A program made the translations under genes and the position numbers. Under the pieces are notes generated by a model. That model ran no database searches. It had not been told where the DNA came from and saw only the letters and a program-made list of their open reading frames with translations. From Terriglobia bacterium (lineage in GTDB: Bacteria; Acidobacteriota; Terriglobia; Acidiferrales; UBA7541), in the NCBI GenBank assembly GCA_963840515.1, contig CAWIZI010000010.1, positions 34,625 through 98,624 on the forward strand: DNA of 64,000 bases, read 5' to 3'. Each line of letters opens with the position of its first letter. The stretch's first letter is position 1. This document shows positions 5,305 through 45,795 of the stretch, one piece after another.

Positions 5305-6258
5305 ATGGAGAGATCTGGCGAAATATCTAGAAGCCGCAGAAAGCAATTGCTAAACATTGCCGGATTTGTTGCAGTCGCGGCGCCGATCATCTTCAGCTTG
5401 GCAATCGCACAGCAAAGCCGCGCTCTATCGCAAGCACAAAGTACGGCCACGGTTGCTCCTGTATTCGTGTATGAGGTTGCATCGATCAAACCAGCAAAGT
5501 CTGGCTCCCGCGGGTCCACGATGAGATTCACTCCAGACGGAGTCACCGCGAGGAACATGTCGCTGACGGCGCTCTTTCGGGCGGCATACGGAGTTCAACC
5601 CGATCAGATTGTAGGAGCGCCAAGTTGGGTCGATTCTGATCGATACGATGTTGATGCAAAAATGGAAGGATCTGTAGCTGATGCGTTGCAAAAGCTTAAC
5701 CAATATGAGCGCACGATTGCACGCCAGCACATGCTGGAGGCGCTTCTGGTGGACCGCTTCAACGTGAAAATCCACCGCGAATCAAAAGAGCTTCCGGTCT
5801 ATACGCTGGTGATTGCGAAAAGCGGTCCGAAAATTCAGGAAGCAAAAACAGACGAGCCCACCTCAACTGAGCCTGGGAGAGGTGGCTTCGGAAGAGGCAG
5901 TATGACGATGACAGCGGGAGGAAAGGGCGGAGCGCGATCGCAAATATTGACGGGTCAAGCCGTTCCAATCGCAAGTCTTATTCGGATATTGACGGGAGTG
6001 CTGGAGAGGCCCGTTCTCGACAAAACCGGGCTAATGGGCCTCTATGACGTAAAGCTGGAATGGTCGCCGGATGACAGCGAAACACAGGCTGCTCCGAGCG
6101 GCGCGCCGAGTAGTCAAACTCCACCCGCGCCATCTGGTTCCGGTGGCCCAGATCTTTTTACTGCGATTCAGCAACAGCTTGGCTTGAAATTGGAATCCGG
6201 AAAAGGTCCGGTCGATATCATTATCATCGACCATGTCGAGAGGCCTTCGGGAAATTAG
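5305..6258 (+). CDS. TIGR03435-family soil-associated protein (function unknown), N-terminal signal/anchor
   Basis: 317 aa with FEVASIKP-like start of the domain, SDRYDVDAK, PVYTLVIAKSGPK, and a C-terminal QQLGLKLESGKGPVDIIIIDHVERPSGN signature. Paralog at 39679..40635. Confidence 0.75.
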   Translation: MERSGEISRSRRKQLLNIAGFVAVAAPIIFSLAIAQQSRALSQAQSTATVAPVFVYEVASIKPAKSGSRGSTMRFTPDGVTARNMSLTALFRAAYGVQPDQIVGAPSWVDSDRYDVDAKMEGSVADALQKLNQYERTIARQHMLEALLVDRFNVKIHRESKELPVYTLVIAKSGPKIQEAKTDEPTSTEPGRGGFGRGSMTMTAGGKGGARSQILTGQAVPIASLIRILTGVLERPVLDKTGLMGLYDVKLEWSPDDSETQAAPSGAPSSQTPPAPSGSGGPDLFTAIQQQLGLKLESGKGPVDIIIIDHVERPSGN

Positions 6259-24973: not shown

Positions 24974-26170
24974 TTATTTTCTTTCTGAGATTAATCGCGC
25001 GAGCGTAAATCCCAGATCGCTGTCTTTGAATTCATATCCTAATGTTTTCAGCTTTTCTGGAATCGCGCGCTGACTGCTGAGCAACAATCCGTCCGCCATT
25101 TCGCCGAGCATCAGCCGCAGCGCGAATGCCGGGGCGGGGAATATCGCCGGACGGTGCACGGCGCGCCCGGCTTTCTTTGTGAAATCCACATTTCTTATAG
25201 GGTAGGGCGAAACTGTATTGATCGGCCCGCGCACATTTTCATTTTCCAGTGCGAAGCGAATCACGCCGGCAGCGTCGTCCAGCGAAAGCCAGGACATCCA
25301 CTGCTGGCCTGAGCCAAGTTTTCCGCCCACAAACATTTTTATCGGCGTCAACATTTTCGGAAGCGCGCCGCCACGAGTGCTCAGAATAATTCCGAAGCGC
25401 AGGATTGCTACGCGTGCGCCAAATTCCGCGGCGCGATTGCTCTCGCGTTCCCAATCCTTGCAAATTTGCGCCAGAAAATCGGCGCCGGGGCCGCTGTGAT
25501 CGGTAAGTTTTTCGTCGCCGCGATCGCCGTAATAGCCGACGGCGGAAACTCCCACGAAAATTTTCGGCTTTGCATTTAGCGTGCTTAGCGAATCTACCAG
25601 GTGGCGCGTTGCTTCCACTCGACTGGAACGCAGCAGAGCTTTTCGCGCCGTTGTCCATCGGCCGCCGCCGATACTTGCGCCAGCGAGATGAACGACTGCA
25701 TCCGCGCCCTCAGCGGCGGCTGCATCAAATTCGTCTGCGACGGGATCCCATCGGACGTCATTCGGAATTGGGGCTTGGACTTGGATTTCGGCCTGAAGTT
25801 CGGTCTGCGCCTCTTCCCGTAATTCGTTTTGCGTCTCGCTCCGAGCTTCACTCTGCAGTTCTCCTTCAGATTCGCGGAGCATTTCGTCCGGAATGTCCGT
25901 CAAAGGTTCGGCTTGAGATTCGCTTTGAACTTCATTCTGAATTTCATTCTCGACTTCATTCTCGACTTCGTCTTGCGCGTCGCTCTGAATTTCGTTCGGA
26001 ACTTCTTCAGCAGTGTGGCTCACGGTGGGCTTCTCGACAGGTGGCGCCTCCACGATTTTCGCTGCGCTTTGCCTTCGTAGAAGACGCGACACGATATATC
26101 CATTTTCTGCAAGCAGTCGCGAAGCCGCCGTGCCCACCATTCCTGACGATCCTGAAATTAGAACGCGCAT
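24974..26170 (-). CDS. TIGR01777-family (YfcH-like) NAD-binding epimerase-fold protein with a roughly 100-aa Glu/Gln-rich insertion
   Basis: MRVLISGSSGMVGTA Rossmann start, then VRWDP..GADAVVHLAGASIGGGRWT..SRV and a DUF1731-like C-terminus. The insertion maps to 25760..26065. Confidence 0.75.
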   Translation of the reverse strand: MRVLISGSSGMVGTAASRLLAENGYIVSRLLRRQSAAKIVEAPPVEKPTVSHTAEEVPNEIQSDAQDEVENEVENEIQNEVQSESQAEPLTDIPDEMLRESEGELQSEARSETQNELREEAQTELQAEIQVQAPIPNDVRWDPVADEFDAAAAEGADAVVHLAGASIGGGRWTTARKALLRSSRVEATRHLVDSLSTLNAKPKIFVGVSAVGYYGDRGDEKLTDHSGPGADFLAQICKDWERESNRAAEFGARVAILRFGIILSTRGGALPKMLTPIKMFVGGKLGSGQQWMSWLSLDDAAGVIRFALENENVRGPINTVSPYPIRNVDFTKKAGRAVHRPAIFPAPAFALRLMLGEMADGLLLSSQRAIPEKLKTLGYEFKDSDLGFTLARLISERK

Positions 26171-26442
26171 TTAGTTTTTGTCCAACGCGCGAACATCTCG
26201 CCCCGCGCGCATCGACCGCGTTCAGGCTATTCCGAGCACACTGGCACGTCAAGCAGGACAGCGATTTTCATCACCGACATGTTCTTTGTCGGTGGAATTT
26301 CGATCGGCAATTTCGCAAAGTTCAAACAATTCGCAGGCGACGGAGGCGCGGAAGAATCTTCGTCTGCATAGAGAAGTCGTTCAGACGGCCTGCGGTCATC
26401 GGACTATTAGCGATAGCCCGTCGCGCTAGCTATAATGCCGCC

Positions 26443-27174
26443 ATGCAAGTGCGCGTACTTTTCTTCGGACGCCTGAAGGAAATTGTCGGCTTCGCGGACG
26501 ATACCGCCGAATTGAGCGAAGGCGCGCGTGTGGAAGATTTGTTCGCGCGATACGGCAATCGGTTTCCGGCGCTGGCGCAGTTTCGTCCGTCGGTTGCCGC
26601 CGCCGTGAATCAGGAATATGCCGATTGGAACGCGCCGCTACATAATAATGATGAAGTTGCGTTCCTGCCACCAGTGAGCGGCGGTGAAGATGTCGCTGCG
26701 GATGCAACTGGCACAGCGCGGGACGTCTGCGCGATCGTGCGCGCGGCGATTCGCACCGGCGAAATAGCCGAACAAGTGAAAGCTCCGGCCGATGGAGCGG
26801 TCGTCGTGTTCGAGGGCATCGTCAGGAATCATTCGCGCGGAAAGCCGACTCTCTATTTGATTTACGAGGCATACGAAAACATGGCGCTCGCAAAGATGCG
26901 CGAAATTTGCGCGGAGATGCGTCGCCTCTATCAAATCGACCGCATATTAATGATGCATCGGCTAGGCCGCCTGGAAATCGGCGAGACAAGTATTTTGATT
27001 GCCGTAAGCTCCGCGCATCGCGCCGCGGCGTTTGACGCCAGCCGCTTTGCGATTGACACGTTCAAACGCACCGTGCCGATTTGGAAACAGGAATATTTCC
27101 GCGATGGCGCAGTGTGGGCCGACGGAGAATTCCCGCTGGCACAACCATTTCGTCCCGAAAGTGAATCTAAGTAA
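26443..27174 (+). CDS. MoaD-MoaE fusion (molybdopterin synthase sulfur-carrier and catalytic subunits in one ORF)
   Basis: MoaD-like MQVRVLFFGRLKEI...EVAFLPPVSGG (GG at 26680..26685) continues in frame into MoaE-like VVVFEGIVRNHSRGK..YEAYENMA..IAVSSAHRAAAF..TVPIWKQEYF. Track ORF 25570..27174 is spurious upstream of 26443. Confidence 0.8.
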   Translation: MQVRVLFFGRLKEIVGFADDTAELSEGARVEDLFARYGNRFPALAQFRPSVAAAVNQEYADWNAPLHNNDEVAFLPPVSGGEDVAADATGTARDVCAIVRAAIRTGEIAEQVKAPADGAVVVFEGIVRNHSRGKPTLYLIYEAYENMALAKMREICAEMRRLYQIDRILMMHRLGRLEIGETSILIAVSSAHRAAAFDASRFAIDTFKRTVPIWKQEYFRDGAVWADGEFPLAQPFRPESESK

Positions 27175-39583: not shown

Positions 39584-39678
39584 TTTTCATAAAATTACAT
39601 ATTCATCTTCCAGTCAGGGTTGGTTTGGGTGTACAAACTCTTTTTCGGCGAGTACACCGATTTTGGAGGGCTTCGCAC

Positions 39679-40635
39679 ATGAAGGAACCTGCCGATGTAT
39701 CTGAAATCCGAAGGAAGTTTTTGCTGAGCACGGCTGGATTGCTCACAGCTGGCGCTTCCCTCGTAATCGGCTTCATACCTTCGACGCCAAGCTGGGCGCA
39801 GTCACAAACGCAAGATAAATCCGCCAACAAAAGCACCCTCCAATACGACGTCGCGTCGATAAAACGATTCATTCCCGGCGGGCCTCTCATCTTGAATGGA
39901 TTTCACCCATTTGTAGAAACGCCAGACGGGCTCGTGGTGAGAACGGCAACGGTGAAGATGCTGATTCTACGAGCCTACGGAGTCGATGCCTATCAGATAA
40001 CTGGAGGGCCAGACTGGCTCAATTCTGAACGTTACGATATCGATGCGAAATTTGACGGCGCTACGGCTGATGAACTGCAAAAGCTCGGCCCGACTGAGCG
40101 CATTCTAGCGCGACAGCGGATGCTTCAAACGATTCTCAGTGAGCGATTCAACTTAACGATTCACCGGGACACGAAGGAATTCCAAGTCTATTCGCTCGTT
40201 GTTGCAAAGAACGGCCCGAAAGTTAAGGAAGTAAAACTTGATGACGTTGACCCGAGCAAGCCTAAGACAGGTCCGGCACCCGGTTCCGCACAGATGACGT
40301 CGGGAGCGGCAGGAGGGCAAATGAGAGGATTTGCATCTCCTCTCTCGAATTTGACTTCAATGCTGACGAACTACTTGCACCGGCCAGTTATAGACAGAAC
40401 CGGACTTACAGGAATATATGACTACACCTTGCGTTGGACTTCGGACGACGGTCAATCGCAGTCTTCATCCAGCATTCAAGGCGGTTCGCCGAGTGGTCTG
40501 CCGTCGACTGATCCTTCCGGCGGCGCATCTTTGCTTACCGCAATTCAGGAGCAGCTTGGTTTGAAATTGGAATCCGCGAAGAGCCCCATTGAACTTACTG
40601 TGATCGATCACGTCGAAAGGCCTTCGGGAAATTAG
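39679..40635 (+). CDS. TIGR03435-family soil-associated protein, second paralog
   Basis: YDVASIK, SERYDIDAK, QVYSLVVAKNGPK and a C-terminal EQLGLKLESAKSPIELTVIDHVERPSGN. Start at ATG 39679. Confidence 0.75.
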   Translation: MKEPADVSEIRRKFLLSTAGLLTAGASLVIGFIPSTPSWAQSQTQDKSANKSTLQYDVASIKRFIPGGPLILNGFHPFVETPDGLVVRTATVKMLILRAYGVDAYQITGGPDWLNSERYDIDAKFDGATADELQKLGPTERILARQRMLQTILSERFNLTIHRDTKEFQVYSLVVAKNGPKVKEVKLDDVDPSKPKTGPAPGSAQMTSGAAGGQMRGFASPLSNLTSMLTNYLHRPVIDRTGLTGIYDYTLRWTSDDGQSQSSSSIQGGSPSGLPSTDPSGGASLLTAIQEQLGLKLESAKSPIELTVIDHVERPSGN

Positions 40636-40804
40636 CATTGGGCTTCAGTTTTCCACAGTTTTCTTCCGCGCAGTGCGCTCGCATTCCTTGATTCACTCCG
40701 AAGCCCATGCTAGGCTCATGCCTCAAGGTGGCAGCGGCACGTCACCAGCACGAATTTTTCCAGAAAATTTTTGAAACAGCGGAAGTTCCGCGAGCGAGGG
40801 TTCG

Positions 40805-41101
40805 ATGTCCTACGAGGCGTTGGGAATGATTGAGACCAAAGGGCTGGTGGCCAGTATTGAAGCCGCCGACGCGATGGTTAAGGCCGCCAACGTCACGCTG
40901 ATGGGCAAGGAATACATCGGCGCGGGATATGTGACCGTGATGGTGCGCGGTGATGTCGGCGCGGTGAAAGCTGCAACGGATGCTGGAGCTGCCGCTGCAC
41001 GGCGCGTCGGAGAACTGGTTGCGGTTCACGTGATTCCGCGTCCACACGAGCACGTTGAAAAAATTCTTCCCGGCGGAAATAAGCCGCAGGGCGCAAAGTA
41101 G
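40805..41101 (+). CDS. bacterial microcompartment shell protein, BMC-H (PduA/EutM-like hexamer subunit)
   Basis: 98 aa: [85 protein letters not shown]. This is close to the PduA sequence over the full length. GAGGG lies 5 nt upstream of the ATG. Confidence 0.9.
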
Positions 41102-41190
41102 TCCTTCTATTTCTTCATCCGCGTGAAAAATATTTTGCGCGGCGCCGCGGACGCACCGGCTAATCTCGACGAAGTTTTGGGTAAAGCGCT

Positions 41191-43002
41191 TTGGAACTGC
41201 GCGACCGCGATCTCATCTCCATTCAGGAAGCCCGTGAGCTGGCAGCACTGGCCCTCATAGCCCAGCAGAAATTCGCTCGATTCTCCCAGGAAAAAGTGGA
41301 TGCAATTGTGGAAGCCGTCGCGAAAGCAACGGCTGCTGAGGCGGAAACTCTTGCGCGTGCGGCGGTTGAAGAAACTGGCTACGGCAATGTGCCCGACAAA
41401 ATTCTGAAGAATCGTGTCGGCGCGATTGATGTGCCGAATGCGATTCGTGGAATGCGAACGGTCGGCATCGTCAACGAAGACAAAGAAAAGAAAATTTTGG
41501 AAGTCGCGGTGCCGGTCGGAGTGATCTGCGCGATTATTCCCGTTACCAATCCTACTTCTACTGCGATTTACAAAACTTTGATTGCACTGAAGGCGCGGAA
41601 CGCGATTGTGCTCAGTCCGCATCCCGGAGCGGTGCGCTGTATTTGTCAGACGGCGAAATTGCTTGCGCGTGCTGCGGTTGCCGCCGGCGCGCCCGAAGGA
41701 ATTGTGACCTGCATGGAGCGCAACACGCTGGCTGGCACGCAGGAATTAATGCGCGCTCCGGAAGTTGGATTAATTTTGGCGACGGGCGGCACCGGACTTG
41801 TGCGCGCCGCGTACAGTTCCGGTAAGCCCGCGTATGGAGTCGGCCCCGGGAATGTGCCTGCGTTCGTCGAGCACACCGCGAATGTGCAAAAAGCCGTCGC
41901 AGATATTTTCGCGGGAAAAACTTTTGACTACGGAACGCTGTGCTCGTCCGAGCAGGCAATTGTCGTCGAAGAAGCTGTGCGTGATGCCGCGCTGGAAGAA
42001 TGCCGCAAGCAGGGCGGATATTTTCTGAATGACGACGAAGCCCGCGCGATCGCCGAATTAATTTTCCCCGGAGGATCGCACGCGCCCAGTCCGAAGGTTG
42101 TTGGAAGGCACGCGACGCACGTCGCAGAGCTTGCCGGAATAAAAGTTCCGGCCGAAACGCGCGTACTGATTGCGCGATTGAATGGAGTTGGCCGCAGCGT
42201 TCCACTTTCCGGCGAAAAACTCTGCCCGGTTCTGGGATTTTATTCCGTGCCGAATCTTGCCGCGGGCATTGACCTGTGCACGCAGCTTCTGCGCTACGGC
42301 GGCATGGGTCACACGGCGAGCATTCATTCGCAGAACGATGCCGCCATTCGCGAATACGGATTGGCCGTGCCCGCGTTTCGAGTGTGCGTGAATACGGCTT
42401 CCACGCAGGGTTCCGTCGGATATTCCACAAACTTATTTCCTGCGATGACGCTAGGCTGCGGCGCGCTTGGCGGGAACATTACCTCCGATAATATCGGTCC
42501 GCAGCATTTGATGAATCTTCGCCGAGTGGCGTGGGAATCACGCGCGGTTGAACATCGCACAATTTCCGCCGCGGATCGCATGAACGCGCCTGCAGCGGCA
42601 AAGGTGGCGGCTGCATCCGCCATTCCAAAAGGAGTGACAGTGAAGCCAACAAATCCAGTGCCGCAATCGCAGCCTTCGAGCACATCTGGAATTCCAGATC
42701 GCGCTGCGATTGCGCATGCAGTCGAACATGTGATGGCCCATTTCGGCATAGCGCGCGGCGCGGCAAGATCAGCAAACCCATCGGAAGCGCCCGCGCCGTC
42801 AGCGACAAAAGCTGTCGCCACAAATGTTTCTCCGTTTGTTACCGAAGGCGACGTGCGCCGCGCCGTCACTCGTGGCGAGAAAATTTTCATCGGCCCGAAA
42901 ACAATTCTCACTCCTTCGGCGCGCGATGTTGCAGGCTCCGAAAATGTGCTCGTCTTGACGGACTACGTTCCTCCAGCCCGCGCCGCCAGTACTTCCGAAT
43001 AA
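41191..43002 (+). CDS. CoA-acylating aldehyde dehydrogenase (AdhE N-terminal-domain type) with a roughly 150-aa C-terminal extension
   Basis: SQEKVDAIVEAVAKA, IIPVTNPTST, ATGGTGLVRAAYSSGKPAYGVGPGN, and catalytic Cys in KTFDYGTLCSSEQAIVV (TGC at 41941). The only in-frame start after the upstream TAA that keeps the conserved N-terminus is TTG 41191. Confidence 0.85.
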   Translation: MELRDRDLISIQEARELAALALIAQQKFARFSQEKVDAIVEAVAKATAAEAETLARAAVEETGYGNVPDKILKNRVGAIDVPNAIRGMRTVGIVNEDKEKKILEVAVPVGVICAIIPVTNPTSTAIYKTLIALKARNAIVLSPHPGAVRCICQTAKLLARAAVAAGAPEGIVTCMERNTLAGTQELMRAPEVGLILATGGTGLVRAAYSSGKPAYGVGPGNVPAFVEHTANVQKAVADIFAGKTFDYGTLCSSEQAIVVEEAVRDAALEECRKQGGYFLNDDEARAIAELIFPGGSHAPSPKVVGRHATHVAELAGIKVPAETRVLIARLNGVGRSVPLSGEKLCPVLGFYSVPNLAAGIDLCTQLLRYGGMGHTASIHSQNDAAIREYGLAVPAFRVCVNTASTQGSVGYSTNLFPAMTLGCGALGGNITSDNIGPQHLMNLRRVAWESRAVEHRTISAADRMNAPAAAKVAAASAIPKGVTVKPTNPVPQSQPSSTSGIPDRAAIAHAVEHVMAHFGIARGAARSANPSEAPAPSATKAVATNVSPFVTEGDVRRAVTRGEKIFIGPKTILTPSARDVAGSENVLVLTDYVPPARAASTSE

Positions 43003-43083: not shown

Positions 43084-45795
43084 ATGCGCAGAACTCAAGC
43101 AAATCGCTACGCGATCGCGTCGGTAGTCGTCGCAGCACTGCTGATCATCGCGGTGCTGGGCGTTTATTTACGTCGATCGCGGCAAGCCGCCGAGGCCAAG
43201 AAAAATTCGCCGCCGTCCGTGCCTTCGTCCATTGAGCGTTCGTCGGAAGGCTTCACGTACACGCAGGGCAGCGGCGATCACATCGTATTTGTCGTACACG
43301 CTTCGAGTGCGACAACATTTAAAGGCGCGCCAAACGCCAGTTCGCTGAAGGATGCTGAAAAAAACGTGCTTCTCAACGTGCGAGGCACCGTTTACGGACG
43401 CAATGAAGACCGCAACGATAACATTCACACCAACTCCTGTGATTTCTACCAGCAGGAATCTGGGAAGAATTCCAATACGAAATCTCAAAAGTCTTCGGAT
43501 CGCGGCAGCATGATCTGCTCCGGCGAAGTTTTGATGGATTTGCAAAGCGCGAAGGATGCGAAGCGCGGCGGTTCCCCGCAGCCGGGCGATGTTTCCGATC
43601 CGCGCATCATTCGCGTGATCACAAAAGGTGTGACGTTCGACATTAGTTCCGCTGATGGACATACGGATCAGCGTGTGGACTTTCAATTCTCCGGTGGAAA
43701 GGGAACTGCGATTGGCGCGGACTACAACGGCGACGATGGCACTCTTCAATTACTTCACGAGGTGCATCTTTCACTGAATGCCACGCCGCCCCAAAGCGCG
43801 AAGAATCAAAGTAAATCTTCCGTCGCGCCCATTCCGGTGGATGTTGTCGGCTCAAGTTTAATATTCCGGCGCGATGCGAAAGTGGCCGTTCTGCACGGGC
43901 CCGTCATCGTGACCCAAGTGACGGCCACGCCTTCCGCGAATACCGCCGTCAATGGCGCGGCGGCTGCTCGCACCGGCTCGCATATATTGCACGCCAGCTT
44001 GCTTACTGTGGATATGGACGCGCTGCTCCGCGCGAAAAAACTTACAGCCGATGGCGATGCAAAAGCGCGCCCGAACGTAGTGTTCGATAGCCCGAAAGGC
44101 GCGGGTACAATCACCGCCGATAAATTTATTGCGGATCTGGATGTGGACGGCACGGCGAAACATTTTTCCGCGCAAGGAAATGTGCAAGGCGATTTCACCA
44201 GCGCGAAGTCCGGCGAAACGGATCATCTTTCCGCCGCGCGTGTGGATGCCGATATGGTGCCGAAAATAAATCAGCCGCGTCTGGTAACGGCAGTCGGCGG
44301 CGTGAAAATGAATTCAGTTCGAGAAGGCCGCACGCGCAGCCTGGAAACAGCAAGCGCCGAAATTAATTTTGTTCCCGGCGTTCCATCGCATCCCGGCGCG
44401 CCGCCTTCGTATCACGCGGATCGCGCGCGCACGCTGGCTCCGGCCACGATGATCACTCGCGAGCCCGTTGCGGGAACCGATCAGATGACGGTGACTCGCG
44501 CCAGTGGACAGCAAATGGAAGTTGGCTTCGACGAACGTAATCGTATGCGGCGTCTGCTTGCGCACAACGGCACGCAGTTGGATCGCGATATTCCCGGCAA
44601 GCCACACGAAGCTTCCAAGCACCAAAATTCCACGTCGCAGGAACTGGTTGCCGATTTCGATCCGAAGGGCCAGTGGACAACGGTTGATCAATCCGGGAAT
44701 GTGCATTTTCAATCCGGCGATCAGTCAGGCCAGTCCGCGAAATCGCATGTGGATCGCGCCACCAACGTCGAAACTCTCACGGGTTCTGCGGAAGCATCCG
44801 ATGCGGCTAGCCACACCACCGCCGACACCATCGTGTTCAATCAAACTACGAATGAAATTCGCGCCGACGGACATGTGGTCACTGCTTATCGCAAGACCGT
44901 AGATGGTACGACAACGTCGGCCGGCACAGTTGGCACGCCGTTATCGCTCGGTCCAGATCCCGCCAACATCACGTCCGAACATTTAGTCGGGAGTTCCGTT
45001 AGCGGCCACGCGGTTTATACGGGCCATGCACGTCTGTGGCAGGGTGATTCCACAATGGAGGCCGACGAAATCGAACTGGACCGCGATAACAGGCAGCTCG
45101 ATGCTCGCGGAAATGTGCGGGCGGTATTTATTCAAGTGGGCGCTTCGCCGGTGCAGAAGCCCGCTGCCGCGCCGCCTCCGCATCCGCCGCAACACCCTCC
45201 TCAGCATCCGGCCGCGAGTCCGAAAGGGGGCGGGACCGCAAAACCGCCGGCGAATAATGCCAAGCCGCCGGTGCCGACGACCAGCACTGCAAAGCAGGCG
45301 CCAGCGCCTTCAGGGCCGGACGTAATTCGTTTGCGCGCCGCAACCTTGACGTATTGGGACGCGAAATCCCAGGCGCATATGGAAGGCGGTTGCACCGCCG
45401 AATCGCGCGACGGCACGATCACGGGCCAAGCCTGCGATCTTTTCTTTGCGCCATCGACAAAACCAGAAGGTTCAGCGCCCACGTCGCAAACCGCTGCCAA
45501 AGCGCCATCAGGAACTCCTCAGACCGCCCCCGGCGCCACGCAGCGGCTCGATCACGCCGTCTTCATCGGCAATGTTGTCGTCCACTCGGAGGACCGCCGC
45601 GCGGTTGGCGAGCGTGGGCAATACGACTCCGCATCCTCGAAGTTCGTAATTTCCGGCGGAAAACCAACACTTTACGACGGTTCTGGAACATCAACAACGG
45701 GCCGTCAATTGACCTTCCTAATAGCGGATGATACGATTCTCGTAGAGTCGGAAGAAGGCACGCGCACATTAACTCGCTATCAGGTCAAGAAATGA
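43084..45795 (+). CDS. giant (903 aa) membrane-anchored LptC/LptA (OstA)-like LPS transport protein with several OstA-like modules and a Pro-rich segment
   Basis: N-terminal TM segment [19 protein letters not shown]. Repeated blocks of the type [24 protein letters not shown] and [36 protein letters not shown]. Lies immediately upstream of lptB-rpoN. Confidence 0.65.

Follow-up and report, generated by a model that had tools for sequence, protein, structure and literature searches.

Why would a bacterium keep one microcompartment shell gene and one aldehyde dehydrogenase gene side by side, with no other gene of such an organelle in sight? Acidobacteriota are among the most abundant soil bacteria, and this pair lies in a 64,000-nucleotide stretch from one of them, a Terriglobia bacterium (assembly GCA_963840515.1, contig CAWIZI010000010.1, positions 34,625 to 98,624; "the window" is this whole stretch). 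An earlier note on this DNA had offered two readings, a satellite of a main bacterial microcompartment (BMC) locus elsewhere or a minimal undescribed system. Of these the first has stood: we consider it likely that the pair is a satellite locus of an ACI-type metabolosome, a reading favoured because the architecture matches the published ACI satellite feature by feature, and the second is left with little probability. The note read the genes correctly, but the locus is of a catalogued kind rather than an undescribed system; what holds of the remark that the function is unstudied is that the type is uncharacterised by experiment (a literature search found no later experimental work on the ACI microcompartment), the type itself having been catalogued by Sutter et al. 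2021 (Nat Commun 12:3809).

Both genes lie where the note had placed them, on the strand and with the content that it gave:

40805..41101, + strand: gene of the shell hexamer protein BMC-H, of the satellite paralogue type that is associated with the aldehyde dehydrogenase (AldDH); 98 aa, PF00936
41191..43002, + strand: CoA-acylating AldDH gene, whole; 603 aa, TTG start, 89 nt after BMC-H
41191..42555, + strand: AldDH catalytic domain, residues 1-455; TIGR02518, AdhE N-terminal half
41941..41943, + strand: codon of the catalytic Cys251, in the context KTFDYGTLCSSEQ

The 98-aa protein is indeed a BMC domain throughout: PF00936 aligns over its full profile (1-75 of 75; E 2.3e-29; 101.6 bits against a cutoff of 24.5), and the protein also reaches the NCBIfam EutM model at 133.3 bits. 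It carries Lys26, R79-P-H81 (a PRPH motif, not PRPF) and a G39-A40-G41 pore loop; the interface lysine, PRPH and G-x-G are kept across 119 satellite-type relatives. The G-A-G pore had been read correctly, and it is not unusual, since the middle residue is alanine in 55 of these relatives and serine in the other 64.

By sequence, the second protein is a CoA-acylating aldehyde dehydrogenase. It matches PF00171, and its residues 5-455 score 597 bits against TIGR02518 (acetylating acetaldehyde dehydrogenase), just under the equivalog cutoff of 620; the likeness to the N-terminal half of AdhE that the earlier note pointed out is borne out at 528 bits, against only 259 bits for the EutE/PduP-type model PRK15398. 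The nearest solved structures are 5J78 (478 bits, residues 3-451), which we take to be the Geobacillus thermoglucosidasius enzyme, and 3K9D (470 bits), presumably Listeria monocytogenes lmo1179, whose gene lies in the Listeria eut/pdu microcompartment cluster; AdhE follows at 372 bits and PduP (5JFL) at 176. Cys251, whose context the earlier note had pointed out, never varies in an alignment of 16 sequences (the window protein and 15 homologues, 50-90% identical to it) and corresponds in alignment to the active-site region of 5J78. The TTG start is supported because homologues begin at the same residue; there is no N-terminal extension, residue 3 aligning with residue 25 of 5J78. Named relatives come from Ca. 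Acidoferrum sp. (70% identity), Ca. Acidoferrales (69%) and Ca. Acidiferrales (60%), and their host order is one of the Terriglobia, Acidobacteriota.

The dehydrogenase fold stops near residue 455, and outside it lies a C-terminal extension of some 150 residues (456-603) in which the earlier note had overlooked an encapsulation peptide (EP) and an extra small domain:

42556..42696, + strand: linker 1, residues 456-502; low complexity, rich in Pro, Ala and Ser
42697..42750, + strand: putative EP, residues 503-520, DRAAIAHAVEHVMAHFGI; conserved amphipathic helix
42751..42831, + strand: linker 2, residues 521-547; variable in length and sequence
42832..42960, + strand: C-terminal domain of about 45 residues, residues 548-590; 14 invariant residues

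Linker 1 cannot be aligned and varies in length among homologues, and both linkers have an AlphaFold2 pLDDT below 50. Between these disordered linkers the model places a helix at 504-517; in the helix sequence PDRAAIAHAVEHVMAHFGIARG, R504, A508 and V511 are invariant across the alignment of 16, and I507, E512, V514, G519 and I520 are nearly so. The same residue pattern is common to the AldDH and to cargo proteins of ACI main loci, both a Cys-rich protein (DRARVRALVRAELEKRL, DPNRVRALVRQALEQKLG) and an aldolase (TRNELIQLISDAIREVG). On these grounds, alignment and structure prediction, we regard the conserved helix 503-520 as a putative EP. Some lineages carry a second EP-like amphipathic helix in linker 2, SPAAEIVARVFG / AAEIAGRLFG (P0063, P0075, P0088, P0100, P0120 and L007; alignment columns ~630-645), which is absent from the window AldDH.

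The terminal domain has the motif FV.E.DVR.A..R.EKIFIGPKTI.TP.ARD and is predicted to fold as beta-alpha-beta-beta-alpha-beta (pLDDT 87.5). It had no match in a Pfam scan or in a single-sequence search of the PDB, and Foldseek against the PDB gave nothing below E 0.35. An exhaustive profile search of 1.84 billion representatives returned 656 matches at E <= 0.001, and all 18 that were inspected are C-terminal pieces of the same AldDH family; from these sequence matches the domain appears to be confined to that family. The one resemblance that a PDB profile search brought up is to the E2 peripheral-subunit-binding domain: the window's G.KT..TP.AR.LA (GPKTILTPSARDLA) resembles GRKTLATPAVRNLA of human BCKD E2 (3RNM), at an E of 0.18, which is below significance. 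That domain is a two-helix bundle, unlike the fold predicted here, and Foldseek gave the resemblance no support; if real, it would fit a docking role.

Both conserved parts of the tail, the EP and the terminal domain, are under strong purifying selection. In a codon comparison of the window with its 90%-identical relative (L001), the rate of nonsynonymous substitution (dN) was 0.028 in the catalytic core, 0.022 in the EP helix and 0.030 in the terminal domain, against 0.32 in linker 1 and 0.43 in linker 2; the ratio to the synonymous rate (dN/dS) was 0.044 for the catalytic domain and 0.056 for the terminal domain. By this measure the EP and terminal domain change as little as the core does, unlike the linkers, which argues that both are functional.

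The pair itself is conserved as well. BMC-H lies directly upstream of the AldDH gene, on the same strand and with a gap of 79-237 nt, in 19 of 19 related loci, so that the neighbourhood on which the earlier note had made its reading depend is conserved; across these loci AldDH identity to the window falls, where measured, from 90% to 50%. BMC-H is 84-98% conserved among relatives and always adjoins the AldDH gene. In all lineages but one the order is RodZ-like HTH, GGDEF, (DUF3738), BMC-H, AldDH, lptC/A, lptB, rpoN, rapZ; in the window, the lptC/lptA-like gene follows the AldDH gene after 81 nt, then lptB, rpoN and rapZ. The pair has been passed on vertically in one fixed place among housekeeping genes, and it is a unit of its own rather than part of the lpt operon, because lineage-specific insertions separate AldDH from lptC, an alpha-L-rhamnosidase gene in L003-6 and ~9 kb in L124.

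What, then, is the pair a part of? Sutter et al. 2021 describe the ACI type as exclusive to Acidobacteria. Its main locus comprises an aldolase (PF00596) bearing a C-terminal EP, a hydroxyacid dehydrogenase (PF00389/PF02826), a BMC-H, a triplet of the pentamer protein BMC-P, and three proteins without homologues, one of ~80 aa with an N-terminal EP and three cysteines. The AldDH stands apart from this locus, as a satellite, and has an EP near its C-terminus and then a ~50-aa domain of unknown function (their Supplementary Data 2); a separate BMC-H type (H_fuchsia or H_royalpurple) sometimes accompanies it. The window shares with this satellite the acidobacterial host, the AldDH away from the shell and aldolase locus, the C-terminal EP with the ~50-aa domain, and the lack of an adjoining phosphotransacylase or signature enzyme. 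It differs in that its host is an Acidiferrales-like member of the Terriglobia rather than of subdivisions 4 or 6, and in having no fourth BMC-P on the satellite; the place upstream of lptC-lptB-rpoN is not mentioned in the catalogue, and a main locus in this genome is presumed by analogy.

Main loci of this type exist in the phylum. We scanned species-representative genomes with a DNA pattern of three tandem BMC-P N-termini (G-T-x-V-[AS]-[ST], three times, 261-291 nt apart); seven of the 31 matches were acidobacterial, namely three Vicinamibacterales chromosomes, Ca. Marinacidobacterales, Pyrinomonas methylaliphatogenes K22 and two unclassified metagenome-assembled genomes (MAGs), and later inspection of neighbourhoods added four further loci, making eleven. 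All seven pattern-found loci have BMC-H followed by three BMC-P; the five whose span reaches upstream also have a class II aldolase with an EP at its end (such as ...VQMTRNELIQLISDAIREVGGS). After BMC-P, L119 and L126 continue with a Cys-rich protein of 75-117 aa that has an N-terminal EP, and in L094 a gene for a 2-hydroxyacid dehydrogenase comes downstream. Where the reading extends beyond the aldolase on its upstream side, genes for a TPR protein and a small YHS-domain protein stand before it, which gives the order TPR, YHS protein, aldolase-EP, BMC-H, three BMC-P, Cys-rich EP protein, in agreement with Pfam. An AldDH was found in none of the eleven, so the organelles that they encode need an AldDH encoded elsewhere.

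Two further features of the ACI main loci can be recorded, and one of the shell-gene matches. The Cys-rich EP proteins (L119 7291-7512, L126 11170-11523, L129 3709-3951) end in ...C.(I/L)EP.RPC.NSGYC(K/R)KLGH, and the YHS-domain protein is membrane-anchored and ~90 aa long; the Cys-rich motif and the YHS protein hint at metal handling. Among the matches of a main-type BMC-H profile, four gene calls of 157-168 aa (P0321, P0332, P0335, P0348) match both PF00936 and PF03319 and are either read-through miscalls over the BMC-H/BMC-P junction or real hexamer-pentamer fusions.

The shell protein beside the AldDH is not simply the main-locus hexamer again. The window BMC-H is 74% identical to the ACI main-locus BMC-H, and a comparison of satellite-type (n=119) with main-type (n=117) sequences gave fixed differences at residues 17, 29, 33, 35, 37, 45, 46, 52, 84, 86 and 90, clustered around residues 29-52 and in the C-terminal tail, the main type having K29, K37, A52 and L84; the pore residue is Ser or Ala in both. 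The two are cleanly separated paralogue families. A dedicated BMC-H paralogue that is co-inherited with an AldDH bearing an extra domain suggests a specific pairing of hexamer and cargo.

Put together, the satellite and the main loci would make one organelle. Hexamers of this BMC-H, with the second BMC-H paralogue and the three types of BMC-P pentamer from a distant main locus, would tile a closed shell, into whose lumen the AldDH would be drawn by the amphipathic helix near its C-terminus, docking on the luminal face of the hexamers. Inside, a class II aldolase with its own C-terminal EP would split a sugar phosphate into dihydroxyacetone phosphate and a short aldehyde, the likeliest reaction being L-fuculose- or L-rhamnulose-1-phosphate to L-lactaldehyde, with glycolaldehyde as the alternative product. 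The AldDH would probably oxidise this aldolase-derived aldehyde to acyl-CoA with NAD+ and CoA, the toxic aldehyde staying within the shell, and the 2-hydroxyacid dehydrogenase of the main locus is a candidate for recycling NAD+. The extra C-terminal domain probably gives the AldDH another place to dock, either on the satellite BMC-H or on a partner enzyme. L-lactaldehyde from either sugar phosphate is our best guess at the substrate, a tentative one to which we give slightly less than even weight, drawn by analogy with the PVM type (Planctomycetes, Verrucomicrobia) and, weakly, from the rhamnosidase neighbour. That gene, an alpha-L-rhamnosidase (PF17389/PF17390; L003-L006 12529-15054, minus strand), is the only sugar-related neighbour of a satellite that we saw. 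Diol dehydratase (PF02286-8) and ethanolamine ammonia-lyase (PF06751/PF05985) were found neither in the window nor in the satellite or ACI main loci examined. We do not assign a fate to the acyl-CoA, because the loci examined have no phosphotransacylase.

Four points weigh against a satellite of an ACI organelle, or against parts of that account. Neither this genome nor any genome of its clade has shown a main locus; for Sutter et al. 2021 the ACI type is one "primarily" of subdivisions 4 and 6, and the window is Terriglobia-like; the substrate is argued only from the aldolase family and the PVM analogy; and a consensus-like promoter of the pair's own (below), with the fixed housekeeping place, would also fit constitutive, possibly shell-independent use.

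The first of these points depends on what the searches could see. Within the window, the earlier claim that no other BMC gene is present holds: when the 64 kb were searched in six frames (phmmer and hmmsearch) for likenesses of BMC-H, BMC-P and every ACI main-locus protein, the pair alone came up, and Pfam scans of 59 open reading frames found no PF03319, PF06130, PF00596, PF00465, glycyl-radical or diol-dehydratase families, the remaining frames having housekeeping or unrelated functions only. In the 19 related loci, too, the 8-10 kb on either side of the pair hold no BMC-P, no aldolase and no additional shell gene. When a second, main-locus BMC-H was sought on the same large contigs, the best 120 matches were all satellite-type, and where BMC-H matched a contig without an AldDH match the loci inspected were satellites again. 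A main-type BMC-H profile gave at least 120 matches, all at 189-192 bits, and among the matches listed none came from a contig or sample in which the satellite had been seen; this result is uninformative rather than negative, the query being centred on Vicinamibacteria. The generic BMC-P profile (HO, CcmL, EutN) found nothing in viral contigs and at least 80 HO-like loci in metagenome contigs, none of them ACI among the matches listed, and tblastn of BMC-P against plasmids gave no acidobacterial record. One IMG/VR match (L010), an enterobacterial pduF-A-B-C beside a prophage, was set aside as irrelevant.

Could the pair therefore work alone? It might be a two-gene aldehyde-detoxifying module of a Terriglobia lineage that has no main locus and no pentamer, in which the AldDH is held by its EP and C-terminal domain on BMC-H sheets, tubes or open shells that act as a scaffold. 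The empty surroundings in the window and in the related loci, the promoter-like element and the stable housekeeping position speak for it, as does the fact that no main locus of this clade turned up among the matches listed. Absence nearby is, however, what is expected of a satellite locus; the same architecture has been described in genomes that do have main loci; and those loci lack an AldDH and so depend on a satellite of this kind. The failed searches, biased to Vicinamibacteria and confined to the best 120 matches, are silent on absence. We hold such a module to be unlikely, and give as little weight to its evolutionary form, in which Acidiferrales-like Terriglobia lost or never had the main locus and keep a vertex-less BMC-H and AldDH scaffold beside lpt-rpoN, the AldDH tied to BMC-H assemblies by its C-terminal domain instead of being enclosed in a shell.

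A satellite of another BMC type, PVM-like or uncatalogued, which would share only the AldDH/BMC-H module with ACI genomes, seems to us improbable to the same degree. The Solibacter locus was classed as PVM-like in 2014, for its class II aldolase, and the window's class differs from the main ACI subdivisions, with its lineage's main locus unseen; yet the EP and ~50-aa domain architecture of the AldDH is the one reported for ACI, the exhaustive search confines the terminal domain to this AldDH family, and the supplementary trees of Sutter et al. 2021 label Ca. Solibacter Ellin6076, Ca. Sulfopaludibacter SbA3 and a Solibacterales MAG as ACI. Least credible of all is the view that the AldDH is a plain acetaldehyde/acetyl-CoA dehydrogenase of the cytosol, working in fermentation or ethanol metabolism, beside a BMC-H that is a relic or has an unrelated role: the catalytic domain is indeed nearest to non-compartment acetylating dehydrogenases and the AdhE half, but the selection on the EP and terminal domain, the conservation of an ever-adjoining BMC-H and the presumed microcompartment origin of 3K9D, the second-closest structure, all speak against it.

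With the satellite reading preferred, we return to the surroundings of the pair, beginning with the element upstream of BMC-H:

40686..40718, + strand: promoter-like element CCTTGATTCAC-N8-CCATGCTAGGCTCA (TTGATT, 17 nt, TGc-TAGGCT); 33 nt

The element, which can also be written CCTTGATTCAC-N8-CC-N-TGCTAG-N-CTCA, is invariant in the window, L001, L002, L003-6 and L007-9, the flanking bases varying; it occurs once in the window, where none is expected by chance. Near copies precede unrelated genes (L002 2387; L007-L009 9736, minus strand), a thymidine phosphorylase and a metallophosphatase gene, and for this reason we take the element to be probably, as far as the sequence goes, a general promoter consensus of these Terriglobia and not specific to the BMC genes; its use as a handle for co-regulated loci was dropped on the same ground. 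A strict sigma-70 scan did not call it, terminator and promoter scans gave counts at or below chance, and an Rfam scan of the leader region had no match. A weak hairpin with a T-rich run overlaps the BMC-H stop codon (41088-41105) and could attenuate read-through into the AldDH gene; such sites are at chance level in the region.

Some observations concern the neighbours alone. The window has two DUF3738/TIGR03435 paralogues, at 5305-6258 and 39625-40635; the second, between GGDEF and BMC-H in the window and L001, is a recent insertion to judge from its absence at that place in L002, L003, L125 and L130. A BMC-H labelled "Verrucomicrobiae bacterium" at NCBI (P0186) stands in the acidobacterial synteny RodZ-GGDEF-BMC-AldDH-lptC-lptB-rpoN-rapZ on four contigs (L130-L133), and the label is probably a binning or naming error. 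Downstream of the pair, 43084-45795 encodes a 903-aa protein with weak LptC and LptA/LptD_N matches and long Pro/Ala/Gln-rich stretches (including PPQHPPQHP), an unusually large fusion whose relatives have 772-872 aa. Elsewhere, a 534-aa open reading frame (25570-27174) places MoaD (ThiS fold) and MoaE behind ~290 residues without a Pfam match; its upstream start may be an artefact of frame calling.

The ACI microcompartment is a phylum-specific organelle of Acidobacteriota, and this locus adds little that is new in kind. It extends the catalogued satellite to a Terriglobia lineage, shows the satellite BMC-H to be a separate paralogue from that of the main locus, and delimits three short candidate targeting or docking modules: the EP, the second EP-like helix of some lineages and the terminal domain of 45 residues. 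Should the aldolase-lactaldehyde reading be true, the organelle is relevant to the way in which soil acidobacteria use plant and microbial polysaccharides rich in fucose and rhamnose.

How does this organelle compare with those already known? In its presumed chemistry it resembles the PVM or PVM-like type, which degrades fucose and rhamnose via lactaldehyde: in both, a class II aldolase makes the aldehyde and an acylating AldDH consumes it, the BMC-P genes form a triplet, and a lactate/2-hydroxyacid-type dehydrogenase is the presumed recycler of NAD+. In PVM, by difference, a single locus holds AldDH, phosphotransacylase and acetate kinase; the ACI AldDH is of another clade, has the C-terminal EP and extra domain, and is encoded separately. 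The HO (Haliangium ochraceum) and MIC3 types share the BMC-P triplet and a related aldolase, and MIC3 alone a related AldDH (Sutter et al. 2021). The HO-like loci differ in forming one locus, in the order BMC-H, BMC-P, AldDH, BMC-T, BMC-P, BMC-P, and their AldDH scores only ~150-200 bits against that of the window.

The PDU and EUT types have a similar shell protein, PduA being 79% identical to the window BMC-H, for which "PduA-like" is a statement of similarity only. They too have an acylating AldDH that is targeted by a short amphipathic helix binding shell hexamers; in PduP and EutE, however, the EP is N-terminal and the enzyme falls in the PRK15398 clade, and the window has no diol dehydratase, ethanolamine lyase or B12 genes. 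The structures nearest to the catalytic domain (5J78, 3K9D and the AdhE N-terminal half) have the same Cys motif as the window AldDH; they end at about residue 460-490, and none has the tail of linker, EP, linker and domain.

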